In this document: positions 14,309-42,476 of the stretch, piece by piece
Layout: each line of letters opens with the position of its first letter
Position numbering within the stretch: the stretch's first letter is position 1
Source: Escherichia coli
Lineage (GTDB): Bacteria > Pseudomonadota > Gammaproteobacteria > Enterobacterales > Enterobacteriaceae
Reading direction: 5' to 3' (one strand)
Assembly: GCF_002854065.1 (NCBI RefSeq)
Contig: NZ_CP024147.1
Length of the DNA stretch: 64,000 nt
Translations under genes and position numbers: made by a program
Notes under the pieces: model-generated
The model's input: only the letters and a program-made list of their open reading frames with translations
What the model was told of the DNA's origin: nothing
The model's database searches: none

Positions 14309-19813
<5,505 letters not shown>

Positions 19814-19820
<7 letters not shown>

Positions 19821-20413: not shown

Positions 20414-20425
20414 CGGATAAATTTG

Positions 20426-20455: not shown

Positions 20456-20469
20456 GCTGCACGAACCTG

Positions 20470-21636: not shown

Positions 21637-21784
21637 TCGCTCTGTAACTTCTTCCGGTTAAACATTTGAGGGTGAATGCATCACCACCGTGGGACCCAAC
21701 GTTGTCGGATCGGCTTGCCGCCAGTATATCGCGAATTACCGCGTCGCCGCCTATCAGACCTGACTGAATGCTGTTTTCAGACAA

Positions 21785-21812
21785 TAAAAAAGCCCGGAGA
21801 TGCGCTCCGGGC
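21785..21812 (-). terminator. gnd terminator
   Basis: On minus strand: GCCCGGAG-CGCAT-CTCCGGGC followed by U-tract. Confidence 0.5.
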
Positions 21813-21839
21813 CTGGCTTTACGGATGAACTAATTCAGA

Positions 21840-23246
21840 TTAATCCAGCCATTCGGTGTGGAACACACCTTCTTTATCAGTGCGTTTATAGGTATGCGCG
21901 CCGAAGTAGTCACGCTGAGCCTGAATCAGGTTCGCCGGCAGTACCGCAGCGCGGTAGCTATCGTAGTACGCCACTGCTGCAGAGAAGGTCGGTACCGGAA
22001 TACCGTTCTGCACAGCATAGGCCACCACGTCACGCAGCGCCTGCTGGTATTCATCAGCGATATTTTTGAAGTACGGTGCCAGCAGCAGGTTGGCGATACT
22101 CGCGTTTTCAGCGTAGGCGTCGGTGATTTTCTGCAGGAACTGTGCACGAATGATGCAGCCCGCGCGGAAGATCTTCGCGATTTCGCCGTAGTTCAGATCC
22201 CAGTTGTACTCGTCAGACGCGGCACGCAGCTGAGAGAAGCCCTGCGCGTAGGAGACGATTTTACCCAGGTACAGTGCGCGACGCACTTTCTCAACGAACT
22301 CTGCTTTATCGCCAGCCAGTTTAGCCTGCGGGCCAGTCAGCACTTTAGATGCCGCCACGCGCTGGTCTTTCAGGGAGGAGATGTAGCGCGCGAAAACAGA
22401 TTCAGTGATCAGCGACAGCGGTTCGCCCAGGTCCAGAGAGCTCTGGCTAGTCCATTTACCGGTGCCTTTGTTCGCCGCTTCGTCGAGGATCACATCAACC
22501 AGGTATTTACCGTCTTCATCTTTTTTGGTGAAGATGTCTTTGGTGATGTCGATCAGGTAGCTGCTCAGCTCGCCTTCATTCCACTCGGTGAAGGTGGTTG
22601 CCAGCTCTTCGTTAGACAGGTTCAGGCCGCCTTTCAGCAGAGAATAGGCTTCAGCAATCAGCTGCATGTCGCCGTATTCGATACCGTTGTGGACCATTTT
22701 CACGTAATGACCCGCACCGTCAGCACCGATGTAGGTTACGCAAGGCTCGCCGTCTTCAGCTACAGCAGCAATCTTGGTCAGGATAGGCGCAACCAACTCA
22801 TACGCTTCTTTCTGGCCGCCAGGCATGATAGATGGGCCCTTCAGCGCGCCCTCTTCGCCGCCGGATACGCCGGTACCGATGAAGTTAAAGCCTTCAGCAG
22901 ACAGCTCACGGTTACGACGAATGGTATCCTGGAAGAAGGTGTTACCACCATCAATGATGATGTCACCTTTATCAAGGTAAGGTTTCAGGGAATCGATGGC
23001 AGCATCGGTGCCCGCGCCTGCTTTCACCATTAACAGGATACGACGTGGGGTCTCAAGAGACTCGACGAACTCCTTGACCGTGTAGTGAGGAACCAGCTTT
23101 TTGCCTGGATTCTCAGCGACAACTTCTTCGGTTTTTTCACGGGAGCGGTTGAAGATAGAGACGGTATAACCACGGCTTTCGATGTTGAGCGCCAGGTTGC
23201 GCCCCATCACAGCCATACCGACTACGCCGATTTGTTGCTTAGACAT
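21840..23246 (-). CDS. gnd: 6-phosphogluconate dehydrogenase (decarboxylating)
   Basis: 468 aa [27 protein letters not shown]... Confidence 0.95.
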
Positions 23247-23417
23247 TACATACTCCTGTCAGGTAGTATCTGTCTATGAACAGACAGAATTTAAGAAATT
23301 ATATATTAGGAGAACGACAAGTTGTATAAAGAAATAGATGTTTGAGTGAAATTAATAACTGTCATAAGTAACTAAAAAAACGCATAGCGACAAGCTCAGA
23401 TAAGTTGTTGCTCAATA

Positions 23418-24563
23418 TTAGAGCACTTCTTGCATTGTGAGTTTATTATAGATTTGAACGGTTTTTCGTATGACAACGGTAGATGAATACTTTTCCTCTA
23501 CTCGCTTTCTGGCATTCTGCCCCATCTTAGTGCGCTCAAGAGGATCGCTAATAAGGATACCAAGCTTCTGAGAAAATAGGTTCACATTTCCTTTAGGCAC
23601 AAGGAAACCGTTATAACCGTCAAGTATTAAACTCCCACAACCACCAGTGTCAAAACTTATAACAGGACGACCGATTGCACCGGCTTCTAAAAGAATTCGA
23701 GGAATACCTTCAGAGTAAACAGATGGCAAAGCGACTATATCCACACTTTCAATTAATTCCTTGATATCGCTACGCTTGCCCAGCCAAATGATATCACCGG
23801 AGTTATGCCACTCTTCTATCTGAGTTATACTTATAGCGTCGCGATCATTGTCAACAAGAATGCCCGCAACTAATATCTCAAATTCGATGCCTTGTAATTT
23901 TAAAATTCTACTAGCATCAATTAACGTGCGTAGCCCTTTACTCCAAAGCATGCGACTTGCAAAAAAAACTTTAACCTTGGTATTATTAGGTGGTGTACTA
24001 TAACAAAAATAGTCTATATTAATACCTGCGCCATCAATAACTTCAGTTTTATTTTTTGGAATATCTAATAGTTCAATTATTTTTTGCTGATCTTTTTTAT
24101 GTTCAAAGAGGATACAACAATCAATATTTAAGAAAAATCTTCTATACATATTAGCAATTAAGAACTTAACCATTTGGTAAATGACCTTATTGCTTTCAAA
24201 AACTCTACCTAACCCAACAAAACTATAGACCATTTTTTTGTTTCGGATTCTGGCCCATAAACAACTAATCACACCAGGTTTAATCGTGACGCTATGCACA
24301 ATATCAGGATTAATTTTATTCAATGTTCTAAATGAGCGAGTTATATCGCAAAAGAAAACAACAGGATTGATATTTTGCTCTTTTATTTTACTATCAATAC
24401 ACTTAAATCCTAAACTAGTAAAGCGATCCAGAATAGACTTGTCAGAATAATTCGCAAAAATATAGACATCATATCCTGCTTCCAGAACTGATAAGGCACG
24501 ATCTAACCAATGTAATTCGAAATACCAAGCGGAGTTCACAAAATAACATATCTTTATTTTCAT
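23418..24563 (-). CDS. Glycosyltransferase, family 1 (GT4-like)
   Basis: 381 aa with C-terminal GT1 motifs (SEGIPRILLEAGAIGRPVIS); AT-rich. Confidence 0.75.
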   Translation of the reverse strand: MKIKICYFVNSAWYFELHWLDRALSVLEAGYDVYIFANYSDKSILDRFTSLGFKCIDSKIKEQNINPVVFFCDITRSFRTLNKINPDIVHSVTIKPGVISCLWARIRNKKMVYSFVGLGRVFESNKVIYQMVKFLIANMYRRFFLNIDCCILFEHKKDQQKIIELLDIPKNKTEVIDGAGINIDYFCYSTPPNNTKVKVFFASRMLWSKGLRTLIDASRILKLQGIEFEILVAGILVDNDRDAISITQIEEWHNSGDIIWLGKRSDIKELIESVDIVALPSVYSEGIPRILLEAGAIGRPVISFDTGGCGSLILDGYNGFLVPKGNVNLFSQKLGILISDPLERTKMGQNARKRVEEKYSSTVVIRKTVQIYNKLTMQEVL

Positions 24564-24718
24564 ATTTAAAACTCACATCTCCTTCCTTAAGCTATTATCC
24601 TGTTAAAATTTAAAACCTCAGCACGTCATCTTATACTTCGAAGAAAATATCAGTTTTAAATAAAGCAAAACAAATCATCCCTGATTTGTTTGTGAATCAA
24701 AATAAAGACTATTACAAA

Positions 24719-26878
24719 TCACCAACACACAAGCATGTATTCATACACCAGATCACGCTCAGGCTGGAGGTGAACAAACTTGAATTGATAACCCATATTG
24801 AGATTTTCAACAAATTTCTTACATTCAAAAATTTGCTCTGGCTGCAACCACAAGTGATAAACAGAAATCAGCAACACGGGCTTGTGTTTTTTGATTGTCT
24901 CGATTGCACCATTAAGGGCATTAATCTCATAGCCTTCAATATCGAATTTAATCAAACCAACACGATCTTCAAACGTCAGACTATCAATAGTGACCGATTG
25001 AACTTTAATGTCAGACTGCTCGTCTTCAACAACACATGAGCCTACTCCATCATCCCCAACTTTCATCATCGAAAGTTCGCCAGATACATTGCTGACAGCA
25101 ACATTTAAGGGTTTAATAGTATCATTTAAATATTGATGATTACGCTCAAGATTCCGAACCATACAGTTATAATTATCAGCTACAGGTTCTAAGGCAAGTA
25201 CTTCTTTAAATCCAAAGCTAGCGAACATGATAGCTGTATCACCAACCCAAGCCCCACAATCTATAGCAACAGAGCCTTTGAATTCTTCAGTGAATCGGCC
25301 TGGAAGATACTTCAAGCCAGCTTTGAAATAGTTGGTTGCTAGAGTAACCGGTAATTCAGATAGATCAAGATGCTGAATTAATTCTTTTTCGTGACGTAAG
25401 ATTGAATCAATATTTGACAATATAACTCTATCTTCATCCGTAAATAATGTTAAAGATAAAGGTAATTCCAACTCAATGCCTTGATGTTCAAAGTATGGCA
25501 GTAATTCATAAAAACCAAATAATTTCCTCTCATTTTGAAGGCTAAATTCATCAAGGCCGCGTTTGAATTCTTCACGTAGTTTAGAGATCCGAGAGGAATT
25601 TACCTTCATGTAATAATAAAACTGGTTAGTAGGCGCTACTTTTATTAGTACAGAACCATTTTTATTCTGTCCTGAAATGACATCGACTTTATCAGTAAGT
25701 TCTTTCGACATCTTCAAAAATGAAGAATCTAACTCCTCCCGAAAATGTTTGGAAAGTAAAGATGAGGAGGAATCCATTTTTGATGAAACAGCATTAATAA
25801 TTGGTTCAATTATTAATTTGTTAGTAATAAAACGTAGTTTGGAAACGACTTTCTTTTTAATCCTGTTTCTTGTCTGAACTGTTTTTATAATCCTGTTACT
25901 CATCAACTCATTATAAATTGGAAGAACATGATTATAATAATAGTCATTTGTATCGGAGGAAAATGAAACATTAGAAGTTACTGGCTGGAAACCTTCTTCT
26001 TTAGCCTGTTCAAAAACAGCAATAGCAGCTTCCTGATATGACTTCAATCCATCGCCTCTCAAACGAGAAGAATGGAAAACTAAATCAAAAAGATGGTGAA
26101 AATAAAAATGATTCAGGTATTTTTGAAACGTTCCAACACTAAGAAGGTGTTTTTTTATAATATCATAATTATTAAAAGATATTAATGCCTTGTCAGCACT
26201 AGCACTGGATGAGCCCACGTTCATGACCCTGTAGTTATAAACAGGCACATTCAAAAGAGTTATCTTTTCTACAGAGGCATAGGTGATGAATTTAAAGGGC
26301 ATATCCTGATATGAAGCCCCAGGACTTTCATAGAAGCGAATATGATTTTCTTCAAGAAAATCTCTTCTATACAAGCCAGTCCAGATTGATGATTCAAGCA
26401 AGAAAAGCTCAACTGAATTTTCTGGTACAATTTCTGCCAAGTTATCATTATCAAATGTACATAAATGCGCAAGGGACTGAGTATTGATTACAACTTCATT
26501 ACTTATTCTATTGAAACTTGCTTTAATGACCGGATTCGGGATTTTATTATAAGCGTCTATTAGACGCTCAAACATATCAAGCTGAACCCAATCGTCTGTT
26601 TCGATGATAGAAATAAAATCGCCGCTTGCAACATCTAGCCCAGAGTTGATTGCAGCTCCGTAACCTGCGTTTTTTTTATGGATAGCAATAATTCTTGTAT
26701 CGCTCGAAGCGTATCGATCAATAATCTGAGGGCAAGCATCAGGGCTACCGTCATTGACTATTATTATTTCCAGATTCTTATATGTTTGAGACAGAACACT
26801 GTCGAGACATTGCTCTAAATAAACTTCGCCGCCGTATACAGGTAAAATAACGGAAATTTTAAAGATATCATCACCCAT
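24719..26878 (-). CDS. Multidomain protein: N-terminal GT2 glycosyltransferase, central linker, C-terminal FkbM-family methyltransferase
   Basis: N-terminus ISVILPVYGGEVYLEQCLDSVLSQTY...ETDDW (GT2, DxD); C-terminus AIDCGAWVGDTAIMFASFG...FDIEGYE (FkbM-like SAM methyltransferase); ~180-aa region between them of unknown fold. Confidence 0.7.
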   Translation of the reverse strand: MGDDIFKISVILPVYGGEVYLEQCLDSVLSQTYKNLEIIIVNDGSPDACPQIIDRYASSDTRIIAIHKKNAGYGAAINSGLDVASGDFISIIETDDWVQLDMFERLIDAYNKIPNPVIKASFNRISNEVVINTQSLAHLCTFDNDNLAEIVPENSVELFLLESSIWTGLYRRDFLEENHIRFYESPGASYQDMPFKFITYASVEKITLLNVPVYNYRVMNVGSSSASADKALISFNNYDIIKKHLLSVGTFQKYLNHFYFHHLFDLVFHSSRLRGDGLKSYQEAAIAVFEQAKEEGFQPVTSNVSFSSDTNDYYYNHVLPIYNELMSNRIIKTVQTRNRIKKKVVSKLRFITNKLIIEPIINAVSSKMDSSSSLLSKHFREELDSSFLKMSKELTDKVDVISGQNKNGSVLIKVAPTNQFYYYMKVNSSRISKLREEFKRGLDEFSLQNERKLFGFYELLPYFEHQGIELELPLSLTLFTDEDRVILSNIDSILRHEKELIQHLDLSELPVTLATNYFKAGLKYLPGRFTEEFKGSVAIDCGAWVGDTAIMFASFGFKEVLALEPVADNYNCMVRNLERNHQYLNDTIKPLNVAVSNVSGELSMMKVGDDGVGSCVVEDEQSDIKVQSVTIDSLTFEDRVGLIKFDIEGYEINALNGAIETIKKHKPVLLISVYHLWLQPEQIFECKKFVENLNMGYQFKFVHLQPERDLVYEYMLVCW

Positions 26879-28199
26879 TGTCTTTCAAAACCTTTCGCAA
26901 AGTGGATTGGAAATTATAGCGCTGATTAAAGTTGGCAAAGACATTTCGACTATGAGTAGCCATGTTAATGAGCTCATCTTTTTTAAGCGATGTAATGAAC
27001 TCAGCACACTTTTGCGCAGATTCGATCTGATGGTACGCTTCTGTCGACTCAATCCCTTCCATAGCAGCTTTAGTTGAAACTAATGGAACACCATAAGAAA
27101 GCGCCTCCAGACATTTAACTTTCAACCCTGAAAGTAATTCATCTGGATTGATAATTACATCGCAGGAATGGTAGAACTTATCAAGGCTCTCACAAAAACC
27201 GAGGATATTAACAAAACCAGGGTACTGTCTACCTTCAAGAGCTCCGCAAATTGTTCCTGAAATATCGAGTCTTACATTATGATCAAGTTTACTTAAGCTA
27301 TCGATAAAATTGTTGATCGCAACGACATTTGGATAGTGCCCAGAGGCCATAAAGCCAACAACGATCTTTTTATTGGATGTTGGGACATAATCAATAAAGT
27401 TTACGTCCAGAATAGGTGGCTGAACAATGACTTGGGAACTAACATTCTCCCTGAAGTAACGGCCTTCTGCTTCTTGAATAGCAAATATATAATTAGCTCT
27501 TGATAACCCAATGGTTTCTTCTTTCTTCGATGTAGAGAAATAGAATTTATCTTGTGAAATACCAATTTTTGCCATTCGAGTGTTCCTCTTAGCAAAAACA
27601 TCGTGAGTATCGATCACTGAGACTGTATTAGGTTTAAGGTATAAACACAATTTTGACAGGAAGACATAATTAACAATTGCAATCTGATAATTATTCATCG
27701 CAGAAAGTGCAGCAACAAATTGACATATTTCATCATCAAGCCAATCGTCAATTTTATTTCCATCAGGAATTATTTGCTGATTGACATCGTGTCTTAGAGT
27801 GCCGAACTTTCCGTTCCGACATTTTATATTATAAGTATAATCCCAATCAACACTATTTGAATCCCAAGGTGAATTATTGAAAACAATAGCGTGAATTGTG
27901 AATCCTAGGGATTTTAATGTCGCAATTTTTGTATCAATATTTTTCCCGACGGCATCATTTCCATAAAAAGGCATAATGACTAGCGCATTTTTATCTGAAC
28001 TTGACTTTAAAATTTTTGGAAAAACAGTAAATTCATTTGCATTTTGTTCAGCATTAACGTTCAACGCTTTAATTAATAACCGCCTTGGGTAATGAGCGTT
28101 AACCATGAGGGCAAATAATTTCCAAAGCTTACGTGCGAGCCTGGTATACCTGAATTTAACAAAAGCTTTCTTCAAAAATCTGGTGATTGTGTTTTTCAT
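26871..28199 (-). CDS. Glycosyltransferase, family 1, with N-terminal domain of unknown function
   Basis: 442 aa; C-terminal GT1 motif (KCLEALSYGVPLVSTK); N-terminal ~200 aa unassigned. Confidence 0.7.
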   Translation of the reverse strand: MKNTITRFLKKAFVKFRYTRLARKLWKLFALMVNAHYPRRLLIKALNVNAEQNANEFTVFPKILKSSSDKNALVIMPFYGNDAVGKNIDTKIATLKSLGFTIHAIVFNNSPWDSNSVDWDYTYNIKCRNGKFGTLRHDVNQQIIPDGNKIDDWLDDEICQFVAALSAMNNYQIAIVNYVFLSKLCLYLKPNTVSVIDTHDVFAKRNTRMAKIGISQDKFYFSTSKKEETIGLSRANYIFAIQEAEGRYFRENVSSQVIVQPPILDVNFIDYVPTSNKKIVVGFMASGHYPNVVAINNFIDSLSKLDHNVRLDISGTICGALEGRQYPGFVNILGFCESLDKFYHSCDVIINPDELLSGLKVKCLEALSYGVPLVSTKAAMEGIESTEAYHQIESAQKCAEFITSLKKDELINMATHSRNVFANFNQRYNFQSTLRKVLKDNG

Positions 28200-28726
28200 A
28201 ATGGAATAGATAACAGATCAGAATAAACTGGATATGTGGCATAACCTACAGCAGGAATCTGATGGCCCGTCTCAACTAAAAAAACTCGGCCCAACCCAAA
28301 CTTTAATCCGGCTTCTACATCACCCAGTTTATCACCAACAATAAAAGATTGTTTTAAGTCAATGGAATAATCACGAGCTGCAGACTCGAACATACCCGTA
28401 TTAGGTTTGCGGCACGAACAATCACATCGATATTCAGGGACAATTCCATCTGGATGATGAGGGCAATAATAGATATCTAATATATCGATACCCTGTGATT
28501 TCAAGATACCCCTATACCACTTTGTCAATTTATCATAATCAGATAAGGTGTAATATCCTTTGGCAATTCCGGCCTGATTTGTCACAATGATTATTTTATA
28601 ACCATGAGCAATAAATCTTTTCATGCCACTGATACAGTTTTTGGTAAATTCAAAATCTTCAATTTTATATAGATAATTGACTTCCTTATTAATTACACCA
28701 TCGCGATCAAGAAATGCCACTTTCAT
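28196..28726 (-). CDS. gmhB: D-glycero-D-manno-heptose 1,7-bisphosphate phosphatase (HAD family)
   Basis: 176 aa, FLDRDGVIN HAD motif I; within heptose gene block. Confidence 0.8.
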   Translation of the reverse strand: MKVAFLDRDGVINKEVNYLYKIEDFEFTKNCISGMKRFIAHGYKIIIVTNQAGIAKGYYTLSDYDKLTKWYRGILKSQGIDILDIYYCPHHPDGIVPEYRCDCSCRKPNTGMFESAARDYSIDLKQSFIVGDKLGDVEAGLKFGLGRVFLVETGHQIPAVGYATYPVYSDLLSIPL

Positions 28727-29400
28727 TTAAATCTCTCACATGCAATGAAATAATCTTCAGGAATTCCTATATCGATAAAATATGAGGAATTAACGTAGGC
28801 CTTAAACTCTCCTTTGAATTTAGGCAAAAAATCAGATTCAAAAGAAAATTTATTCCCAGCAAACTTGCTCATAATTTCCTTTGAGACAATATAAATTCCA
28901 CTGTTAATAATTCCAGGGCCAGTTCTTCCCTTTTCTACCATAGCATTAACATTAGATTTCTCATCTAAATCTAAACTACCATAACGAGCGACATCATTAA
29001 CTTCGACACCAGATATTAGAAGATCTGTTCCCTTCGAAGCTTCTATGAAGTCACTATAATTAAGCTCGCAGTACGTATCACCATTAAGAACAATGAATTT
29101 ATCCGTTCTGACTTTAGAACTGGCATATTTAATTGCGCCACCAGTTCCTAGAGGTTCTTTTTCGACAACAAAGTCAACCTCACAACCAACAGGGTTGTCA
29201 TGGACAACCCTGTCGATGATATAGTCAGCTTTGTAGGATAATGATAGTATAATTCTGGTAGCTCCTTGTTTTTCAAGATACGTCATTAGACGATAAAGAA
29301 ATGGTTGCCCTGAAATATCTACCATTGGCTTAGGAAGCTCGCCACTAACACTCTTCAGACGAGTACCTAGCCCTCCTGCCAAAATAACTACATCATACAT
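28723..29400 (-). CDS. hddC: D-glycero-alpha-D-manno-heptose 1-phosphate guanylyltransferase
   Basis: 225 aa nucleotidyltransferase (VILAGGLGTRL); context with hddA/gmhA/gmhB. Confidence 0.7.
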   Translation of the reverse strand: MYDVVILAGGLGTRLKSVSGELPKPMVDISGQPFLYRLMTYLEKQGATRIILSLSYKADYIIDRVVHDNPVGCEVDFVVEKEPLGTGGAIKYASSKVRTDKFIVLNGDTYCELNYSDFIEASKGTDLLISGVEVNDVARYGSLDLDEKSNVNAMVEKGRTGPGIINSGIYIVSKEIMSKFAGNKFSFESDFLPKFKGEFKAYVNSSYFIDIGIPEDYFIACERFK

Positions 29401-29402
29401 AA

Positions 29403-29993
29403 TTATTTATCTTCTGGTTTGAAAATGGCACGTTCAACAATTGCGCAGATCATATGACCAATGCAAATATGGCATTCTTGAATGTATGGTGTAATTTTAG
29501 AAGGTACATTAATTGAATAGTCTACCAAATCTTTAAGCTTACCTGCTTCACCACATAGCGCCACGCTTGTCACACCCAGTTCTTTTGCCAGTTCCATCGC
29601 GTTAATGATATTAACGGAGTTACCTGAAGTACTGATGCCAATGAAAACATCACCTGGCTTGCTTTGAGCTTGCAGTTGTCTTGCAAATAGTTTATCAAAT
29701 CCGTAGTCATTGCCGATAGCCGTTAGCATCGAGGTATCAGTGGTGATAGCAATGGCTGGTAATCCTGGTCTATCGAAAAAGAAGCGACTGACGAACTCAG
29801 CCGCGATATGCTGAGAATCAGCAGCACTACCACCATTCCCGGCAAGAATTACTTTATTCCCGTTTTTATATGCATTGATAATCAAATCTGCAACTAAAGA
29901 GATTTGGCTCAATACACTGTCAGATTCCTGAAGCAATTTTTTTACTGCAATGCTGTCATCAAGATATGCTTTAATATAATTTACATTGTCCAT
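29403..29993 (-). CDS. gmhA: Sedoheptulose 7-phosphate isomerase (SIS domain)
   Basis: 196 aa; GNGGSAADSQH motif. Confidence 0.8.
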   Translation of the reverse strand: MDNVNYIKAYLDDSIAVKKLLQESDSVLSQISLVADLIINAYKNGNKVILAGNGGSAADSQHIAAEFVSRFFFDRPGLPAIAITTDTSMLTAIGNDYGFDKLFARQLQAQSKPGDVFIGISTSGNSVNIINAMELAKELGVTSVALCGEAGKLKDLVDYSINVPSKITPYIQECHICIGHMICAIVERAIFKPEDK

Positions 29994-31009
29994 GAATATG
30001 CTCCATCCTCGACAAATTGGAATTTATAGACTTCGCCACCAAACTCTTGTAGTTTACGTTCGATCAACTGTTTTCGCTCCGGTTCAACGAATAGCATCAT
30101 AAAACCACCGCCACCGGCACCTGAAACTTTCATTGACTTAACACCGATACTAAACACTTCCTTCTCGATTTTCTCAATCATCGGATTACTGATTGACGAT
30201 GAGGTGTTTTTCTTACTTTCCCATGCATCCAGGAATGTCGCGGCCATAGCATCGATATCAGATTTGAGTAAGTGTTCTTTAATCTGATATGCTGATTCTT
30301 TAACTTTATGCATAGCCATCAGTTTAGACTCTTTGTCACTCTCTAAAGATCTAATCTGGTCATCAATAATTTTCGCAGAGTCTCTCGAAGCCCCTGTAAA
30401 ATAAAGAATCAGGGATGACTCTAACTCATTTATTATATATCTACGAATTCTAAGTGGGTTAACAATAACGCGATTACCTTCATAAAACTCCATGAAATTA
30501 AAACCACCAAATGTTGCAGCATACTGATCTTGTTTACCACCTGATAAACCACAGTCTACTCGCTCAATCTTGAATGCTAACTGGGCCAGATCATATTCTC
30601 CAAGAGGCAGAGAATACATTTGCCGTAGTCCTTCAAGCATTGAAACAACAACCGTCGATGATGACCCCAAACCGCTACCTGCAGGAGCGTCAGAATGAGT
30701 AATGATACGAACCGGTTTTAATTCGCCGTCAAAATAATCATTCATGACTCGAAGGTAAACTGCTCGATGCAGTTTTAGCTTCCCTTCAATCGTTACACCA
30801 TTGGTAAGATCAATCTCTTCTCTGATATTAAGGTCGGTTGCCTCAAAAATAACTTTACTACCTTCAAGCTCATCATCAATGTAAGCATACGCATACATAT
30901 TGATGGTCGCATTCAGTACACACCCACCGAATGTATCGCTATAAGGTGAAACATCTGTCCCACCTCCTGCAATGCCTAAACGTAGAGGCGCTTTGCTTCT
31001 AACTTTCAT
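29981..31009 (-). CDS. hddA: D-glycero-alpha-D-manno-heptose 7-phosphate kinase (GHMP kinase)
   Basis: 342 aa GHMP kinase (PAGSGLGSSS); context. Confidence 0.7.
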   Translation of the reverse strand: MKVRSKAPLRLGIAGGGTDVSPYSDTFGGCVLNATINMYAYAYIDDELEGSKVIFEATDLNIREEIDLTNGVTIEGKLKLHRAVYLRVMNDYFDGELKPVRIITHSDAPAGSGLGSSSTVVVSMLEGLRQMYSLPLGEYDLAQLAFKIERVDCGLSGGKQDQYAATFGGFNFMEFYEGNRVIVNPLRIRRYIINELESSLILYFTGASRDSAKIIDDQIRSLESDKESKLMAMHKVKESAYQIKEHLLKSDIDAMAATFLDAWESKKNTSSSISNPMIEKIEKEVFSIGVKSMKVSGAGGGGFMMLFVEPERKQLIERKLQEFGGEVYKFQFVEDGAYSWTM

Positions 31010-31025
31010 AACAAAAGAATCCCTA

Positions 31026-32054
31026 TTAACGATTCAGAGGAATGCGGCCAGATGCGATTTCTTTTCTCCAGTGCTGGAGTAAATCACGAAACATATCTGT
31101 CGCTTTTATTTCTGGTTTCCAGTCAATGAAATTCCTGATTTTAGTATTATCAAACATTTGGTAATCGGCATCAATTGGACGCAGGCGATCTGTATCTGTA
31201 ACAACTTCAATATCGTCACGAGTGCTAAAGCTCAGTAAAAGGTCTATAACCTCAGGAAGTTTGAATGCTTCTTCACCTGCAATATTAAATGCTTCGCCGA
31301 AAGGAACATTCCCTTTTTCGCTCTCCAGAGCTAATAAATAGTATGCACGCACAGCGTCTCTAGCATCTTGGAAAGTACGTACGCTTGCTAAATTGCCAAC
31401 TTTTAATTTTGGTTCCTGATGTCCAGCTTCGATCAAGGCAATCTGCTTGGCAACAGTACTTTCGAAAAATACATCACTACGGCGTGGGCCTGTATGTGTG
31501 CCCATGCGAGTGATAAATGTACGCAACCCATATGCCTCGCCATAAAAACGCCCTAAATAATCGGTACCAATTTTACTAATGCTGTAAGGGCTAGCGCCAT
31601 GGAACTGCGTATCTTCGTTTAAAGCTTCACCTACTTTTGCTCTACCATAAACTTCACTAGAAGAACAAACATGAACAACAGGATCATAACCATCTTGTTG
31701 TTTTAGTTTTTTAATGCATTCCAACAGATTGGCAGTACCAATAATATTGGTCTGCAAGGTCTCGATCGGAATATCGAATGAGGTGCGGGGAAATGACTGC
31801 GCAGCAAGGTGGAAAATGAATTTTGGACGCTTCGCTTCAATTAAGTTATACATGGAAGTATAGTCATTAAGGTCTGCGTATTGGATGAATACTCTATCCT
31901 TTTTATTAATCCGGTCTGTTAAATGATAGATATTATCCATTGGCTCTTGCCAACGCATCATTCCAATTACTGTGTCGGTTGTATTCTCTAAAATATAATC
32001 TGCTAATTGAGAACCAACTTGTCCAGTGAATCCTGTAATTAATACATTATTCAT
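31026..32054 (-). CDS. dmhA: GDP-sugar 4,6-dehydratase (Gmd family); predicted GDP-D-glycero-D-manno-heptose 4,6-dehydratase
   Basis: 342 aa SDR-extended dehydratase adjacent to GDP-heptose genes; not in the colanic acid gmd/fcl block. Confidence 0.6.
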   Translation of the reverse strand: MNNVLITGFTGQVGSQLADYILENTTDTVIGMMRWQEPMDNIYHLTDRINKKDRVFIQYADLNDYTSMYNLIEAKRPKFIFHLAAQSFPRTSFDIPIETLQTNIIGTANLLECIKKLKQQDGYDPVVHVCSSSEVYGRAKVGEALNEDTQFHGASPYSISKIGTDYLGRFYGEAYGLRTFITRMGTHTGPRRSDVFFESTVAKQIALIEAGHQEPKLKVGNLASVRTFQDARDAVRAYYLLALESEKGNVPFGEAFNIAGEEAFKLPEVIDLLLSFSTRDDIEVVTDTDRLRPIDADYQMFDNTKIRNFIDWKPEIKATDMFRDLLQHWRKEIASGRIPLNR

Positions 32055-32060
32055 ATATGC

Positions 32061-32894
32061 TTACCCCTTAATAACGTTTAAATATGATTCACATGATCTA
32101 TCAAGAATAGATTCGAGAAAACGACTTTTGGTATTAATTTTTTTTGGCCTACCCAGCCAAAATGATTCTGGCGCATCTGTAAATTGATACTGCAGTTCTG
32201 GAAATTTTTCCTGCGCTAGCGCCAAAACAATCTGTTGTCGACTGACAAGATCCGGGCCGGAGAAATTAACGATGCGAGTATCAATTTGGCTCCAATTCAA
32301 TATAATATTTTTGATGCCTAACAATACATCATTAATTGAAACAACACTGCGCTCAAAACCATCAAATACATCTAATAATTTACTATTCAAACTGTGCTCT
32401 TTTACCATTTCAGAGAATTTATCACCTTTCCCTAAAATGTACGAAAATCGTATTACGAAGAACCCAGGGTTATTTGAAAAATGTTCTTCAACTTCACATT
32501 TCATTTGACCATATTTGCCAAATGGTTTTCGTTCTGACATTTCAGTGCACACATCAGATGTACCACCAAATACAACATCACTTGATGAGAAAATCACTCG
32601 CGCATTTTTTTTAAGTAATTCAGATATCAAAGTAATTGTATTTTTCACATTAATCTTATGCGCAACGTCATAGTTTTTCTCACATTGATCAGGCGCAGAG
32701 ACTGCTGAAAGAAAAATGATGGTGTCATCATTGTTTACTTGATCCAGTAAATCATTAAATTCACCAGTTTCCAGATCAAAATGAATATCTGAATTTTTTC
32801 TTCCAACTGTTACCAGCGAAAAAGCATCACTAAGAAATGATTTAAGATGATTACCAACGTAACCAGTAGACCCTAGAATGAATACTTTTCTCAT
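32061..32894 (-). CDS. dmhB: NAD(P)-dependent sugar-nucleotide reductase (RmlD-like); predicted GDP-4-keto-6-deoxyheptose reductase
   Basis: 277 aa SDR with GSTGYVG Rossmann motif; adjacent to dmhA. Confidence 0.55.
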   Translation of the reverse strand: MRKVFILGSTGYVGNHLKSFLSDAFSLVTVGRKNSDIHFDLETGEFNDLLDQVNNDDTIIFLSAVSAPDQCEKNYDVAHKINVKNTITLISELLKKNARVIFSSSDVVFGGTSDVCTEMSERKPFGKYGQMKCEVEEHFSNNPGFFVIRFSYILGKGDKFSEMVKEHSLNSKLLDVFDGFERSVVSINDVLLGIKNIILNWSQIDTRIVNFSGPDLVSRQQIVLALAQEKFPELQYQFTDAPESFWLGRPKKINTKSRFLESILDRSCESYLNVIKG

Positions 32895-32967
32895 ACTCAG
32901 TTACCAAATTATACGAAGTGAAGATGTATGCACATAAAATGCTATGAAGACAATTTTATCTGCCATT

Positions 32968-33942
32968 TTAATAACCGACGGATAGCTCAAATACACCGTC
33001 ATGATCTTTGGTATCTTTAAATTTAATTTTATAAATTTTATTATGATTAAGGCGAAGCCAGAAACTGTTGTCTTTAATGGATACTCTTTCCCAATCACTT
33101 GTTGTGGTTTTAAAACTGACGGAGACCACATCAACATCAATATTAAAATTAACATCTGAATATTCAGCTGTTGGATTTATATCTCCAACCTTAAAAGCTA
33201 CTGTTTCAGTATTTTTGTATTCCAGGAGCTTAAGCCCATAACTTGTCAGTTTCATAATCAAATTATATTTATTGTATACACTGTCACTTGGACCTTCATC
33301 CAGAACAACACCGTTTTCAATGCAAACAAGTCGATCGGAAAGGAGCTTCAACTGGTGTTCGTCATGCGAAACGATGACGACTGTTGTGTCTGACTTTATT
33401 TTTTCACGAATGCTTTTTTGTGCTTTCTCTGCAAAAGTCACGTCACCGACACCCAGTACTTCATCAATTAACAGAACTTCAGGGGTAGTATACATGGCAA
33501 TTGAGAAACCCAAACGTGCTAGCATACCTGATGAATAATTTTTAATTGGTTTTTCGAAGAACTCATTAAGCTCTGAATATACTTTGATGTCTTCAATAAT
33601 TGATTTGATATAAGACAATCTATGACCGAGGACCATTCCACTAAAGATAGTATTCTGACGACCTGATAAGTTGGGATCAAATCCTGCCTGAAGGGCCATT
33701 AGAGAAATACTGTTTGAATGAATAGTTATTTGCCCAGAATCAGGCTTAATAATACCCGCCAGAACTCGTAGTAATGTAGATTTCCCTGCTCCATTACGCC
33801 CAATTATTCCAAGAGTTTCGCCACGATAAACATCGAATGTAATGTTTGTCAAAGCTTCATATTCATCGTAAGTAAAGAGTGTTTTCTTTTCTCTATAAAC
33901 TAAACCTACGTTTTTTAGCTCAATAATCTTTTCATTCTTCAT
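32968..33942 (-). CDS. wzt: O-antigen ABC transporter ATP-binding protein with C-terminal extension
   Basis: Walker A GRNGAGKST, ABC signature SSGM, Walker B LLIDE; ~85 aa beyond the NBD. Confidence 0.85.
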   Translation of the reverse strand: MKNEKIIELKNVGLVYREKKTLFTYDEYEALTNITFDVYRGETLGIIGRNGAGKSTLLRVLAGIIKPDSGQITIHSNSISLMALQAGFDPNLSGRQNTIFSGMVLGHRLSYIKSIIEDIKVYSELNEFFEKPIKNYSSGMLARLGFSIAMYTTPEVLLIDEVLGVGDVTFAEKAQKSIREKIKSDTTVVIVSHDEHQLKLLSDRLVCIENGVVLDEGPSDSVYNKYNLIMKLTSYGLKLLEYKNTETVAFKVGDINPTAEYSDVNFNIDVDVVSVSFKTTTSDWERVSIKDNSFWLRLNHNKIYKIKFKDTKDHDGVFELSVGY

Positions 33943-34712
33943 TTCTGAACAACTCGTGGGAAGATGAATTCTAATCTCTTAAATGCATACAACGAAATAG
34001 AAATCATAATTAAAGAAAGCAGAACTACATATGCGAGCAGCTTAATATTTGGTGCATTATGATACATCAATACATCACGGTACGAACTAAGAATTACTGC
34101 CATCGGGTTAATGAAGAAAATCTTCGATTCCATCGCCGGTATACTTTTGTAATTGAAAAATATACCTGAGCAAAACATCATAATTTGAAGGCCGGTTTCA
34201 ATTACAAATGAAAAATCTCTGACAAAGGGAACAATGATTGACACTATCAAAGAAAATGCAACTATTAATAATAGCTGAACAAAAATGACTGGAATAATCC
34301 AAAGCAAGCCAAGAGTATAATCATAGCCGTACAAGACTAAAAAAATAAATAGCAGAATAAATACAAGTATCTGCTTTAACGCATCCTGCAATATAAATGT
34401 CAAAGGGAAGAATATCTTAGAAATATGTACCTGATTCATTAGGTACTTTCCTTGAATGATACTCCCTTGCGCATGACTAACGCTGCGACCAAACCATATC
34501 CAGGGGATCAGTCCAGTTAACAGGAATGGGACGTAATCATGACCACCTTGCTTAAGAAGATATGCAAAAACCAAATAGTAAATTGCCATTTGAAGGACTG
34601 GTTCGATAATCCACCAAGCATAACTTAAATAGTTTATTGATGCTTCTGATTTTAGATTAAGCTTTGCTTTAACCCAAACCAATTCAAGGGTTTTTAACGA
34701 CATGATACTCAT
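33939..34712 (-). CDS. wzm: O-antigen ABC transporter permease
   Basis: 257-aa ABC-2 type membrane protein; coupled to wzt. Confidence 0.85.
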   Translation of the reverse strand: MSIMSLKTLELVWVKAKLNLKSEASINYLSYAWWIIEPVLQMAIYYLVFAYLLKQGGHDYVPFLLTGLIPWIWFGRSVSHAQGSIIQGKYLMNQVHISKIFFPLTFILQDALKQILVFILLFIFLVLYGYDYTLGLLWIIPVIFVQLLLIVAFSLIVSIIVPFVRDFSFVIETGLQIMMFCSGIFFNYKSIPAMESKIFFINPMAVILSSYRDVLMYHNAPNIKLLAYVVLLSLIMISISLYAFKRLEFIFPRVVQK

Positions 34713-34713
34713 G

Positions 34714-37650
<2,937 letters not shown>

Positions 37651-37654
<4 letters not shown>

Positions 37655-38520
37655 TCACCTTTTGCACGTGCTATAATGTATTGACCATAATCATTTTTCT
37701 TCATAGGTAGTGCATTTTTTATTGCTTCTTCTTTGCTTAACCAACCATTTCTTAATGCAATCTCTTCAAGACATGCAACCTTGAGGCCCTGAACATTCTG
37801 GATGGTTTGCACGAAGGATGACGCTTCATGCAAACTTTCGTGGGTCCCTGTATCCAACCAAGCAAAACCACGCCCCAGTAGCTCTACGTTAAGAGTACCT
37901 TCTTTGAGATACATGTCATTAAGATCAGTAATCTCCAGCTCCCCTCTCACTGAAGGTTTAACTTTTTTAGCGAAATCGATAACGCGATTATCATAGAAGT
38001 AAAGTCCAGTGACTGCATAATTTGATTTTGGTTTTGACGGTTTTTCTTCAATAGATACAGCCCGCATCTCGCTATCAAATTCAACTACACCGAAGCGTTC
38101 AGGGTCTTTCACTTGATAACCAAATACTGTTGCACCGTATTCTCTTGCAACAGCATTCTGCAGGATTTTGATAAATGATTGGCCATAAAAAATATTATCA
38201 CCCAGCACCAAACAAACTTTATCGTTTCCTATAAATTTCTCACCAATGAGGAATGCCTGCGCTAATCCATCAGGGCTGGGTTGCACGGCATAATTAAGCC
38301 GAATACCAAAATTACTGCCATCACCGAGTAACCGCTGGAAACTCGCATTATCTTCTTCAGTGGTTATTATTAATATATCTTGAATACCCGCTAGCATAAG
38401 TGTGGAAAGCGGGTAATAAATCATTGGTTTATCATAGATTGGTAATAGTTGTTTTGATACACCACGAGTTATTGGATACAATCTAGTGCCAGAGCCGCCT
38501 GCTAAAATAATACCTTTCAT
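37651..38520 (-). CDS. rmlA: Glucose-1-phosphate thymidylyltransferase
   Basis: 289 aa [18 protein letters not shown]... Confidence 0.95.
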
Positions 38521-38532
38521 CTTTTATCCTTA

Positions 38533-39621
38533 CTACTCTACGAGCCCTAAGCGTTCACCAGCGTACGAACCATCCATCACACGCTGCCACCATTCTTTAT
38601 TATTTAAATACCAGTGAATGGTTTTAGTGATACCCGTTTCAAACGTTTCTTGCGGCACCCAACCTAAATCTTGTTTAATTTTACTGGCGTCAATGGCATA
38701 TCTAAGGTCATGCCCTGGACGATCGCTAACATACCGAATCAACTGTTCAAAATTTTCAATGCCATCTGGTTTATCTGCAATCAATTCATCGAGAATGCGA
38801 CAAATAGTTTTCACTACATCGATATTTTTACGTTCGTTATGACCACCAATATTATATGTTTCTCCCGGCACACCCTTTGTGACGACTTCATAAAGTGCCC
38901 GGGCATGATCTTCAACATATAACCAATCTCGAATTTGCTCACCGTTCCCATAAACAGGTAAAAGTTTACCCGCAATTGCATTCAGAATAATTAACGGAAT
39001 GAGTTTTTCAGGGAAATGGTACGGCCCATAATTATTAGAACAATTTGTCACTATGGTGGGTAATCCATATGTACGCCGCCATGCACGAACTAAGTGATCA
39101 CTGGATGCCTTAGAGGCGGAATATGGACTGCTAGGGGAATATGAAGTTTGTTCTGTAAACAATGGCAATATTGTATCTGACGATACTTCATCCGGATGAG
39201 GAAGGTCACCATAAACCTCATCCGTAGAAATATGGTGGAAGCGAAATGCACCTTTGCGATCTTCACTAAGTGCTAGCCAATACTTACGAGCTTCTTCTAG
39301 TAAGATATATGTTCCAACAATATTGGTTTCAATAAAGTCTGCAGGGCCTGTGATTGAACGATCAACGTGGCTTTCGGCTGCCAAATGCATTATTGCATCT
39401 GGTTGGTGATGTGCAAAAATATTGGCTATTGCAACGCTGTCGCAAATATCCGCATGCTCAAATTTATACCGCTCGTTATTCTCAATCTCTGTCAGAGATT
39501 CCAAATTACCTGCATAGGTAAGTTTATCAACATTGATGACAGAGTCTTGCGTATTATTAATTATATGACGAACAACTGCAGACCCAATAAAACCTGCACC
39601 ACCTGTAACCAGTATTTTCAC
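38533..39621 (-). CDS. rmlB: dTDP-glucose 4,6-dehydratase
   Basis: 362 aa [21 protein letters not shown]... Confidence 0.95.
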
Positions 39622-39715
39622 TTTGAATTTCCGCTATGACTTATAACTTATGGCTTGATAATATGAATGTTTGTTAAGAACAATCTGAATATTAAAAAAG
39701 ACACTTATGATTAGA

Positions 39716-39754
39716 CACGCTACCGCCCCTGGCTCTCCAGCTACCAGCGCACTG
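39716..39754 (-). promoter_or_regulatory. JUMPstart element with ops site (GGCGGTAGCGT at 39717-39727), RfaH-dependent antitermination
   Basis: Minus-strand sequence CAGTGCGCTGGTAGCTGGAGAGCCAGGGGCGGTAGCGTG matches the 39-bp JUMPstart consensus; ~95 bp upstream of rmlB. Confidence 0.75.
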
Positions 39755-40044
39755 CACCTTCAATGATAAAAATCATTTATGTCAAGGTAAAAATCCGCAA
39801 CGACTCCCACCTGCAAACCCAAAAAATTTCGGCAACTATTTTCGTCTTAAATGCATTTGAACTCAAGGAAAAATCTTATAAACGATATGCAACGCCTACA
39901 TTTCTAACCTATTGTTATTTTTTACTTTGTTTTATGAAATAAAAAGGCAGTGAAGCTAGTAGTAGGTTACCCTACATACTTATGCCCATCTGCCGTTCTA
40001 AAACGCCGTTCTTAAATTTGCTTTATCGTTTACTGAGAAACGAC

Positions 40045-40935
40045 TTAAGATAACAACTTTTCAATACTTTTCCTGATCTTAGCCCCTTCCTTCAGGTTGC
40101 GCAACCCATACTGCACAAACGCCTGCATATACCCCATCTTCTTCCCGCAGTCGTAGCTCTCACCCGTCATCAGCATCGCGTCAACAGACTGCTTATTCGC
40201 CAGTTCGGCGATCGCATCCGTCAGTTGAATTCGGCCCCACGCCCCCGGCACGGTCTTCGCCAGTTCAGGCCAGATATCAGCGGAAAGTACATAGCGGCCT
40301 ACGGCCATCAGATCGGATTCCAGCGTCTGCGGCTGGTCAGGTTTTTCGATAAAATCAACGATACGGCTAACTTTACCTTCGACATCCAGCGGCTCTTTCG
40401 TTTTGATGACGGAGTATTCAGACAGGTCGCCCGGCATACGTTTCGCCAGCACCTGGCTACGCCCGGTTTCGTTGAAACGCGCCACCATGGCGGCAAGGTT
40501 GTAGCGCAGCGGGTCGGCGCTTGCGTTGTCCAGCACGATATCCGGCAACACAACCACAAACGGGTTATCGCCGACAATCGGATGTGCGCACAGGATAGAG
40601 TGTCCCAGGCCCAACGGCTGCGCCTGGCGAACGTTCATGATGGTCACGCCAGGAGGACAGATAGATTGAACTTCAGCCAGCAGCTGACGCTTCACGCGCT
40701 GCTCAAGCAGTGCTTCCAGTTCATACGAGGTATCGAAGTGGTTTTCCACCGAGTTTTTCGATGCGTGTGTGACCAGAACGATTTCTTTGATCCCTGCAGC
40801 AACCACTTCGTCGACGATGTACTGAATCATCGGCTTGTCAACGATCGGCAGCATCTCTTTAGGGATGGCCTTCGTGGCAGGTAGCATGTTCATACCCAAT
40901 CCCGCTACCGGAATGACTGCTTTCAAATTAACCAT
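40045..40935 (-). CDS. galF: UTP-glucose-1-phosphate uridylyltransferase subunit GalF
   Basis: Start chosen at [14 protein letters not shown] (AGGTGG RBS), matching E. coli GalF; the ORF-track GTG at 40947 is rejected. Confidence 0.9.
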
Positions 40936-41069
40936 TATCTTGTCCACCTATATATCGGTTGATGAATTATAGCGATTAAACATGTTTAATCCACTCTGTT
41001 TTGTCATAGTACTGATTTGAGTCAGGATGATCCCTGGATGTAATCCGATAATTCAGTGGATTGCCGTGC

Positions 41070-42467
41070 TCAGCGGCGCGGCAGCGCAAAATTGAGGCGT
41101 TCTGTGTTGACAACATGCTGATCGACCCGATCAATATCCACCGCCGCCTGCCCTTTCTCATTCACCGCCCTCACGTTCGCCAGCGACAGCAGCGTATCCT
41201 GCTTCGCCATAAACTTCCCACGCACATCCTTGCGTAAATCGAAGTTCAGCTTCAGCGCAGGCCCACGAAAGGAGAGCTGCATCACGTTGATGTTCCTCAA
41301 AAAAATGTGTTGCGGTTTGTTATGAATCTCCAGCGAAGCGTGCTTCATGGACAGGTTGGTGATAGAGACAAACGAGGGGTTGTTACCCGAGGAAATTTGA
41401 ATACCGCGGACCGTATAGGCCAAAGCACTGTTGTCCATCTGTATATTATTCAGGCGGAAGTTTTGCGGTATCGACAAATAATTACCTTTGATAACACCGT
41501 AGCCAATCAGCATTCCCGCGCTATTAACCATATCGACACCATCAATAACGAAATTATCACAGCCGTAGATCGCCACCGTGGCGTTATCTATTCCCGCCTG
41601 CTTGCTGAATTCCGGCGTGATATTGCTGGCTTTCACATTACGTATAATAAAGTGTTTGCCGTTTTCCACGTGCACCAGCTGGCGGCAGTTGCTGCCGGTG
41701 ATGTTGGCGACGACAAAGTTTTTCACCGCCTGCTCTTCCGGGTAGCCATTATCGTAGGTGCTGCCGGCCAGGCCGATCCCGATGCCCCAGTTGACCTTAC
41801 CGTTGGTGCAGTCGATATGGTCGATGACGTGGTCGGAGATAAGGATATTGCGGTCGTTAATCGCCACGTTCCACTCAATGGCGTCGCCCTGCAGATAGCT
41901 GAAGTGGCAGTGGGTGATGTTCACATCAAGCCACTGATTATGGTAGCCCTGACGCAGAATACCGTAATTGGCTTTGGTGATGGTCAGGCGGGTAATGGTC
42001 AGGTTACGCAGCGTACGCTTGTCTTTCCCGCCGATGAAAATCTGCACCACTGGGCCGTAGCCGCTCATCGTCAATCCGGCAATCGTACAATCACTACCAC
42101 GGACGTCCAGCGTAATGTTGTAGAGGCTGGCTTCACCGCTGCCGATCACCTGGCAGCCCTTTTGCAGGATAAAGCGCCCGCGCCCGTTGCCTTTCAGGGC
42201 ACCGGCAACCGCCAGCGTTTTCCCCGGCGGCAGCGTAATCGCCGTATTGATATTGTCGCAAACCACACTCGCTGGCACGTTGACGGTGTCGGCCTGCGCG
42301 AAGGCCTCATTGAACGCGCGGATCCAGTCGCCATTGTGCACGTAGTCACGTATGTCCACTGCCGAGCGCTTCTCAGCAGCACGCGCGGCGGTTGCTGAAA
42401 GTACCGGTAAGGCCGCGGCAAGCGTTGCCCCGGCGATAAGGAAGTAACGTCGGGTTAAGGTGTGCAT
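41070..42467 (-). CDS. wcaM: Colanic acid biosynthesis protein WcaM
   Basis: 465 aa; Tat-like signal [16 protein letters not shown]; conserved position next to galF. Confidence 0.85.
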
Positions 42468-42476
42468 AGCGCCTCC

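Follow-up and report, generated by a model that had tools for sequence, protein, structure and literature searches.

The Escherichia coli O52 O-antigen gene cluster within a Kluyvera-type chromosomal block of about 67 kb

Introduction

In the type strain of Escherichia coli serogroup O52, the purified mutase Fcf2 reportedly converts dTDP-D-fucopyranose (dTDP-D-Fucp) to dTDP-D-fucofuranose (dTDP-D-Fucf), and the O antigen is said to be a polymer of Fucf and 6-deoxy-D-manno-heptose (6d-manHep). The corresponding gene cluster is reported to have been published by Feng et al. (2004, J Bacteriol 186:4510) and Wang et al. (2008, Mol Microbiol 70:1358). According to a review (PMC7685785), O52 is the sole E. 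coli serogroup with D-Fucf and also the sole one with 6-deoxy-D-manno-heptose; its heterodisaccharide unit follows the ABC-transporter route, the dmhAB, hddAC and gmhAB genes make GDP-heptose, and the cluster carries one glycosyltransferase beyond the expected number. Here we analyse a stretch of 64,000 nucleotides from E. coli (hereafter the window; assembly GCF_002854065.1, contig NZ_CP024147.1) and the AT-rich locus found in it at 23418-39754. We conclude, with a probability of about 95%, that this locus is the E. coli O52 O-antigen (rfb) cluster, organized as one RfaH-dependent operon of 16 genes, and that it arrived in a block of Kluyvera-type chromosome of about 67 kb. The cluster itself is already known, published and partly characterised biochemically, and is an ordinary find; the origin of the block and its precise limits add a modest new detail rather than a novel type of system.

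Identity and layout of the O52 locus

Exact-sequence look-up of 10 predicted products retrieved all of them from the public collection, where several hundred contigs carry such proteins, and half are UniProt O52 entries, namely FCF2_ECOLX, Q6E7F0 (WbrV), Q6E7E9 (Wzm), Q6E7E7 (DmhB) and Q6E7E6 (DmhA). Of 5426 complete E. coli genomes, 4 carry the whole 16.5-kb block at about 100% identity (rounded), and in these RefSeq uses the name fcf1 and the designation 'O52 family' for both wzm and wzt; the latter two genes serve as O52 typing targets (PMC4732683). The O52 gene content (rmlBA, fcf1, fcf2, dmhAB, hddAC, gmhAB, wbrV/W/X and one more glycosyltransferase gene) is complete in one operon, and nothing in the sequence contradicts the assignment. 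A first-pass annotation, made from the sequence alone, had recognized a resemblance to the O52-type cluster; the exact UniProt matches and the RefSeq names go further and point to the O52 cluster itself.

The cluster is placed between galF and gnd, behind a JUMPstart element, and fills 23418-39621 with 16 contiguous open reading frames (ORFs) on the minus strand, separated by gaps of at most 156 bp. Their order is rmlB, rmlA, fcf1, fcf2, wbrV, wzm, wzt, dmhB, dmhA, hddA, gmhA, hddC, gmhB, wbrW, wbrX and a terminal GT4 glycosyltransferase gene. Both limits first noted for the AT-rich stretch coincide with functional features: at 23418 the last glycosyltransferase gene ends with its stop codon, and 39754 is the exact 5' end of the JUMPstart RNA match, which covers 39716-39754 on the minus strand (Rfam RF01707; 56 bits, gathering score 35). 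This element lies about 95 nt upstream of rmlB and holds the ops sequence GGCGGTAG at 39720-39727; JUMPstart/ops is the RfaH-dependent antitermination signal for the operon. The boundary genes, all on the minus strand and named by RefSeq, are galF (40045-40947) upstream, and gnd (21840-23246) and ugd (20470-21636) downstream, the last being directly followed by hisI; all three are Kluyvera-type alleles.

GC content in 1-kb windows falls to 32-42% over 23.5-39.5 kb and is 50-63% on either side, with a mean of 36.5% for 23418-39754 as against 55.7% from sbcB to gnd and 55.5% from galF to wza. The AT-rich block seen by eye is thus real and its edges are sharp, although the first estimate of 30-35% GC was slightly low. 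Within the block, rmlB, rmlA, dmhA, hddA and gmhA have 39-41% GC and the other cluster genes 33-37%.

Genes were assigned from NCBIfam, Pfam and PDB matches combined with the RefSeq annotation. All 16 ORFs were assigned to families; none of rmlC, rmlD, wzx, wzy or wzz is among them, and none codes for a multi-pass flippase or polymerase, in agreement with the earlier proposal of a wzm/wzt locus free of wzx and wzy. The window's sole wzx-type and polymerase genes, wzxC and wcaD, both belong to the colanic acid cluster, outside the O locus.

Synthesis of dTDP-D-fucofuranose

The dTDP-D-Fucf enzyme set, RmlA, RmlB, Fcf1 and Fcf2, is complete in the locus. The rmlB gene (rfbB in RefSeq; 38533-39621, minus strand) codes for a dTDP-glucose 4,6-dehydratase that scores 689 bits with NF007490 (cut-off 649) and 504 with TIGR01181 (cut-off 365), and rmlA (rfbA in RefSeq; 37651-38520, minus strand) for a glucose-1-phosphate thymidylyltransferase with 514 bits for TIGR01207 (cut-off 361). 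The following gene, fcf1 (36701-37654, minus strand; same name in RefSeq), codes for a dTDP-4-dehydro-6-deoxyglucose C4-reductase of SDR fold; apart from an additional Met that the ORF call places at the N-terminus, its product is the 316-aa dTDP-4-dehydro-6-deoxyglucose reductase entry. Finally, fcf2 (35565-36698, minus strand) codes for a dTDP-fucopyranose mutase of the Glf family whose sequence is exactly that of FCF2_ECOLX. The family models and RefSeq names thus recover what the first-pass annotation had read here, that is rmlB and rmlA without rmlC and rmlD, next to an SDR reductase and a Glf-like mutase. RmlA and RmlB turn glucose-1-phosphate into dTDP-6-deoxy-D-xylo-hex-4-ulose, which Fcf1 reduces at C4 to dTDP-D-fucopyranose, the substrate of ring contraction to dTDP-D-fucofuranose by Fcf2. 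These activities are taken from the literature, in which the steps are demonstrated by others on these same sequences: PMC10888714 credits kinetics of Fcf1 and Fcf2 to Wang et al. 2008, and Fcf2 is biochemically a dTDP-fucopyranose mutase.

Family matches mislead in the case of Fcf2. The protein passes the UDP-galactopyranose mutase (UGM) model TIGR00031 with 324 bits (cut-off 304), its best PDB matches are Klebsiella-type UGM chains (E about 1e-160) and RefSeq labels the gene glf. The exact-sequence link to the characterised enzyme is the sole source of the correct reading. The first-pass annotation had proposed to decide the matter by whether the best matches of the mutase fall in the UDP-galactofuranose (UDP-Galf) pathway; such a check misfires, as the matches are UGM-like and the enzyme is nonetheless a dTDP-fucopyranose mutase. 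A naive best-match check would falsely reject the Fucf reading, and automated labels (glf, 'GDP-mannose 4,6-dehydratase', 'hypothetical protein' for hddA) hide the real chemistry of this locus.

Synthesis of GDP-6-deoxy-D-manno-heptose

All members of the GDP-6-deoxyheptose gene set are present in the cluster, on the minus strand like the rest. The sedoheptulose 7-phosphate isomerase gene gmhA (29403-29993; 191 bits for TIGR00441 with a cut-off of 209, 189 bits for NF010546, and so named by RefSeq) is a second, cluster-borne copy. The D-glycero-D-manno-heptose 7-phosphate kinase gene hddA (29981-31009) has NF049969 as best NCBIfam match (384 bits over the full length, equivalog cut-off 600), and the D-glycero-D-manno-heptose 1-phosphate guanylyltransferase gene hddC (28723-29400) has NF049965 (188 bits, also full-length, cut-off 300). 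The heptose 1,7-bisphosphate 7-phosphatase gene gmhB (28196-28726) reaches 170 bits with TIGR00213 (cut-off 150) and is called 'D-glycero-alpha-D-manno-heptose-1,7-bisphosphate 7-phosphatase' by RefSeq. Two further genes would carry the pathway to the deoxy sugar. The Gmd-like product of dmhA (31026-32054), a predicted GDP-D-glycero-D-manno-heptose 4,6-dehydratase, matches Q6E7E6 exactly and is 78% identical (265/341, E=3e-181) to PDB 7US5, 'GDP-D-glycero-D-manno-heptose 4,6-dehydratase'. The dmhB gene (32061-32894) codes for a predicted RmlD-like C4 reductase that matches Q6E7E7 exactly and gives weak RmlD-family matches; its assignment follows the UniProt name and the RmlD-like fold, and it has no close solved relative.

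By homology, GmhA, HddA, GmhB and HddC are expected to yield GDP-D-glycero-alpha-D-manno-heptose, which DmhA, as 4,6-dehydratase, and DmhB, as C4 reductase, would convert to GDP-6-deoxy-D-manno-heptose. The identity between DmhA and 7US5 supports this predicted branch, and the best NCBIfam matches agree with the earlier reading of a complete GDP-heptose set accompanied by a Gmd-like dehydratase and a reductase.

Chain assembly, capping and export

The cluster codes for four glycosyltransferase modules, namely WbrV, WbrW, the N-terminal part of WbrX and the GT4 protein of the last gene. WbrV (34714-35568, minus strand) is a GT2 glycosyltransferase with weak GT2 family matches and an exact match to Q6E7F0. 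WbrW (26871-28199, minus strand) is a GT4-like glycosyltransferase of 442 aa with a weak GT4 match, one residue (A388E) off Q6E7E1. WbrX (24719-26878, minus strand), 719 aa long and one residue (S270Y) off Q6E7E0, is a fusion of a GT2 domain (PF00535 at 9-137) and an FkbM methyltransferase domain (PF05050 at 540-679). The last gene (23418-24563, minus strand), a 'glycosyltransferase family 4 protein' in RefSeq, codes for 381 aa by ORF and 373 aa in RefSeq, shows GT4 family matches and is present as an exact protein sequence on 236 contigs; it is probably wbrY of the published cluster.

The exporter consists of Wzm and Wzt. The ABC-2 permease of the O-polysaccharide exporter, Wzm (33939-34712, minus strand; 257 aa), matches Q6E7E9 exactly and is an 'O52 family O-antigen export ABC transporter permease' in RefSeq; it lacks an NCBIfam match, and PF01061 is found on its orthologues. 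The ABC ATPase Wzt (32968-33942, minus strand), labelled 'O52 family ... ATP-binding subunit' by RefSeq, is of the O-antigen and teichoic-acid exporter type by family models and has its nucleotide-binding domain at residues about 25-231; its PDB matches to O-antigen and teichoic-acid exporter ATPases are limited to residues 25-231. An extra C-terminal domain of about 95 residues follows, for which the AlphaFold2 model of residues 227-324 is a nine-strand beta sandwich (pLDDT 78). Pfam finds nothing in Wzt beyond residue 162 and gives no Wzt_C match, a word-index search with the 101-residue C-terminal domain returned no matches, and the modelled fold resembles only generic Ig/FN3/CBM56-like structures. 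This domain may plausibly read the cap.

From the type of pathway, we predict that the chain grows at the cytoplasmic face from a lipid-linked primer, presumably Und-PP-GlcNAc made via WecA, which is encoded elsewhere. Some of the glycosyltransferase modules would make the adaptor and others would polymerise the Fucf/6d-manHep disaccharide, after which the FkbM domain of WbrX would add a methyl cap and stop the chain. Wzm/Wzt would then export the finished chain and WaaL would ligate it to the lipid A-core, with no role for Wzx, Wzy or Wzz. A minor 3-O-methyl-6-deoxyhexose is reported to occur in the O52 polymer. WbrX is proposed to be both the polymerising and the chain-terminating enzyme; in the review of E. 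coli O antigens (PMC7685785), the methyltransferase is proposed as chain terminator and WbrX is predicted to be bifunctional.

The flanks and the Kluyvera-type block

The flanks of the cluster are themselves foreign. Identity profiles and crossovers delimit a Kluyvera-like recombinant block that spans 7161-64000 and continues about 3.5 kb beyond the window end, for a length of about 67.2 kb (2900275-2967476 in genome CUWW06, NZ_CP182139.1). It holds the 3' part of sbcB, tsuBA, plaP, yeeZ, the his operon, ugd, gnd, the O52 cluster and galF, then the complete wca cluster up to wza, followed by yegH, asmA, dcd, udk, dgcE, alkA and yegD, and it ends inside mdtA. Informative sites place the left crossover inside sbcB, between 7140 and 7161, and the right one inside mdtA, at CUWW06 positions 2967476-2967482.

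In 1-kb windows, the block shows 65-87% identity to K-12, and the 62 kb of it that are comparable with Kluyvera genomosp. 3 YDC799 (CP022114.1), from sbcB through udk, stand mostly at 96-99.8%; values are lower at the sbcB end (about 90%) and for the central O-cluster genes (86-94%). A comparison with K-12 from sbcB up to the window end gave 67-86%. Over longer stretches, YDC799 matches at 97.8% (32761-52485) and 97.3% (10274-27753) DNA identity. The boundary genes follow the same pattern: galF is 80%, gnd 86% and ugd 73% identical to K-12, and all three are 98-99% identical to YDC799. For the wca flank (40000-48000), identity reaches 99% or more only in the same four O52 genomes; it does not exceed 80% in the majority of other E. 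coli, and more than 4000 E. coli genomes stand at about 78%. The WcaM protein shares 99% identity with that of YDC799, 84-95% with those of at least 5 other Kluyvera species and 68-79% with those of Citrobacter and Trabulsiella. The chromosome outside the block is 97-99.8% identical to K-12.

Two additional Kluyvera-type sequences were compared. Contig L031, whose O locus is another one, shares 98.6% identity over his, ugd and gnd, and the independent scaffold L035 is collinear through yegD-mdtA, where it is 79% identical to K-12 and 94% to CUWW06. YDC799 could not be followed past dgcE, and a Udk look-up gave only E. coli O52 strains and another scaffold; the last 5 kb or so (dgcE-alkA-yegD-mdtA') are called Kluyvera-like from their divergence from K-12, the informative sites against L035 and the 94% identity of that scaffold to CUWW06. 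The right-hand pattern recurs in two further O52 strains. In CUWW06, RefSeq lists as pseudogenes dgcE (split and truncated, inside the block) and mdtD (internal stop, just beyond it), at L003 14945-17074 and 27242-28657.

Gene order also sets the region apart from K-12. The 56-bp gap between ugd and hisI (20414-20469) lacks the wzzB gene that K-12 has there, wzz elsewhere in the genome being unsearched, and yeeY, yefM-yoeB and, beyond the window, yegI-yegL are missing as well. YDC799 has the same order, with ugd beside hisI and no wzzB, so these absences reflect the gene order of the donor, not separate deletions. The imported block accounts both for GC-rich flanks unlike those of E. coli and for the missing wzzB. 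We propose that homologous recombination exchanged the native region of his, O-antigen and colanic-acid genes for about 67 kb of Kluyvera-type chromosome, from sbcB to mdtA. Horizontal acquisition, as first suggested, therefore stands, but the acquired unit would be about 67 kb long and not the 16-kb AT-rich island; likewise, the flanks are GC-richer, as described, without being native E. coli core alleles. We found no literature link between O52 and Kluyvera and no description of the block import, and the Kluyvera-type flanks go unmentioned in the accessible O52 literature.

Related clusters in other genera

The same 16 genes occur in Enterobacter roggenkampii (GCA_053118655.1, L038) at 99.2-99.7% identity over the equivalent of 23938-41000, and identity drops to 74-78% from within wcaM outward. 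The locus, about 99.5% identical in that species, has therefore undergone an independent and recent transfer between genera. In a Cedecea-type contig the cluster is complete and 67-80% identical, and in a K. cryocrescens-type contig (L039 11745-12159) it is 86-92% identical and lacks dmhB and dmhA. The same 1.5 kb, window positions 31233-32760, is missing from YDC799 (L029 5458-6570). The dmhB/dmhA deletion is real, because the independent K. cryocrescens-type contig has it too, and strains with the dmhAB-less variant are predicted to use D-glycero-D-manno-heptose where O52 has the 6-deoxyheptose. Together, clusters with and without dmhAB form a natural pair for probing the effects of heptose 6-deoxygenation.

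Divergence between O52 and YDC799 is concentrated in the stretch from the Wzt C-terminal domain to wbrX (86-94% identity, as against 98-99.8% for the remainder). In Wzt, the C-terminal domain is about 20% diverged and the nucleotide-binding domain is 100% identical where readable, the YDC799 gene being frameshifted. Nearly every gene over about 60 kb of YDC799 (L027, L029, L030, L033 and L034) is split by frameshifts. That the O-cluster genes of YDC799 are pseudogenes was considered and set aside: his, gnd, ugd and wca are fragmented likewise, which makes sequencing indels more likely. The frameshifts are most likely uncorrected long-read indel errors, and the pseudogene calls of this assembly are untrustworthy.

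Very probably, then, O52 exists through one Kluyvera import of about 67 kb that changed the O antigen, the colanic-acid genes and his together, with the locus having also moved very recently into Enterobacter roggenkampii and a dmhAB-less variant present in Kluyvera. The O52 locus exemplifies, with precise bounds, how DNA from a Kluyvera donor lineage can replace the entire stretch of his, O-antigen and colanic-acid genes in another genus. It bears on how serotypes evolve and on the targeting of rare-sugar O antigens by phages or vaccines.

Alternative explanations

The mutase and the reductase could instead serve UDP-Galf synthesis or another hexose pathway while the heptose genes feed the lipopolysaccharide (LPS) core, in which case no Fucf/6-deoxyheptose polymer would be made. 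The TIGR00031 score of the mutase, its RefSeq name glf and its nearest solved relatives, which are UDP-Galp mutases, all lean that way, but the exact sequence is that of the UniProt 'dTDP-fucopyranose mutase' with published kinetics, and its gene comes directly after rmlB, rmlA and fcf1. DmhA is closely related to a GDP-heptose 4,6-dehydratase. Moreover, HddA and HddC serve the GDP-D-glycero-alpha-D-manno-heptose series, whereas the core uses ADP-L-glycero-beta-D-manno-heptose, so that the product series of these enzymes differs from the one used for the LPS core. We regard this explanation as highly improbable.

A different question is how much DNA moved, and in which direction. The GC step matches the cluster boundaries, the classic signature of an O-antigen island, as would be expected had only the 16-kb AT-rich segment been inserted between native E. 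coli core genes. This scenario is very unlikely given flanks that are far closer to Kluyvera genomosp. 3 than to K-12, a wca flank of at least 99% identity that is confined to the same four O52 genomes, and crossovers that map in sbcB and mdtA, about 67 kb apart. Transfer from E. coli to Kluyvera, or a sequenced 'E. coli' that is a misidentified Kluyvera, draws some credit from YDC799 being a single genome whose assembly is full of frameshifts. It is scarcely credible, however, when the wca genes of the block are 84-95% identical to those of at least 5 other Kluyvera species and only about 78% identical to those of more than 4000 E. coli genomes, when contig L031 matches closely across his, ugd and gnd despite its different O locus, when the independent L035 scaffold is collinear over yegD-mdtA and only 79% identical to K-12 there, and when the host chromosome outside the block is of K-12 type (97-99.8%).

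Some observations weigh against our conclusion that the locus is the O52 cluster, imported with a Kluyvera-type block. HddA, HddC and GmhA score under the NCBIfam equivalog cut-offs. The O52 polymer is reportedly partly O-acetylated, and no acetyltransferase gene lies within the O52 cluster. YDC799 is not the exact donor, being only 86-94% identical from the wzt 3' end to wbrX and lacking dmhB and dmhA; on sequence grounds, it is best regarded as a close relative of the donor. Finally, the review states that the activity of O52 DmhA and DmhB lacks biochemical demonstration (PMC7685785). On the matter of O-acetylation, a prophage-borne gene for an 'acyltransferase family protein' was observed in CUWW06 (NZ_CP182139.1, 2862126-2863196), at the far end of the sbcB prophage and adjoining dacD, and its product is a candidate for O52 O-acetylation.

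Prophage and other features of the window

To the left of the block lies, at 288-6700, part of a lambdoid (P22-like) prophage, its early-left end, with Erf, SSB, Abc2 and a tyrosine integrase at 5418-6596. The prophage is integrated in the first codons (about 40 nt) of sbcB, to which it supplies a substitute N-terminus, and the core TTTCACGATTACG is found at both ends. Positions 1-5169 differ from CUWW06, which carries bet/exo/gam instead. The prophage was considered as the left end of the imported block, by lateral transduction, and rejected: about 340 nt of E. coli-like sbcB lie between the phage and the crossover. Three IS1 copies were detected, at 1-287 (cut by the window start), 3931-4704 and 9506-10273, the last of which disrupts tsuA (yeeE) and is missing in CUWW06. 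Further Rfam matches at gathering score are a second JUMPstart upstream of wza (63886-63923, minus strand), a His leader (13248-13369, plus strand), the small RNA STnc240 (12025-12101, minus strand) and an algC RNA motif upstream of cpsG (49402-49451, minus strand).

Comparison with known systems

Compared through the O52 reference proteins (UniProt Q6E7E0-Q6E7F0 and FCF2_ECOLX), the locus occupies the same galF-gnd site as the published O52 cluster, with the same 16 genes in the same order and with proteins that are identical or one residue off, the only differences being WbrW A388E and WbrX S270Y.

The O52 system shares with the polymannose systems of E. coli O8/O9a and Klebsiella O3/O5 (WbdA/WbdD/Wzm/Wzt) the ABC route without Wzx, Wzy or Wzz, an additional C-terminal domain on Wzt and chain termination by a methyl (or phosphomethyl) cap, which for O52 is predicted. 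Like O52, O8/O9a is an E. coli serogroup locus common to another genus (PMC7685785). The O52 polymer differs in being a heteropolymer of two rare sugars and not a mannan. In O52 the methyltransferase is joined to GT2 as an FkbM domain, whereas the polymannose systems have a separate WbdD, and the Wzt C-terminal domain of about 95 residues lacks a Pfam Wzt_C match. As for the heptose branch, Yersinia pseudotuberculosis O:2a (DmhA/DmhB) and the Campylobacter jejuni capsule follow the same logic of GmhA, HddA, GmhB, HddC, a dehydratase and a C4 reductase, but in O52, unlike in these pathways, the 6-deoxyheptose enters a Wzm/Wzt-exported O antigen.

At the level of the chromosome, Holt et al. (2020; PMC7305143) counted 218 between-genus exchanges of surface-polysaccharide loci in the Enterobacteriales. 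Such exchange is thus a documented general phenomenon. The O52 case is alike in that galF-gnd (cps/O) loci are recently exchanged through recombination in conserved flanks, and differs in being a specific, delimited replacement that spans 67 kb, comes from a Kluyvera donor and has its crossovers in sbcB and mdtA.

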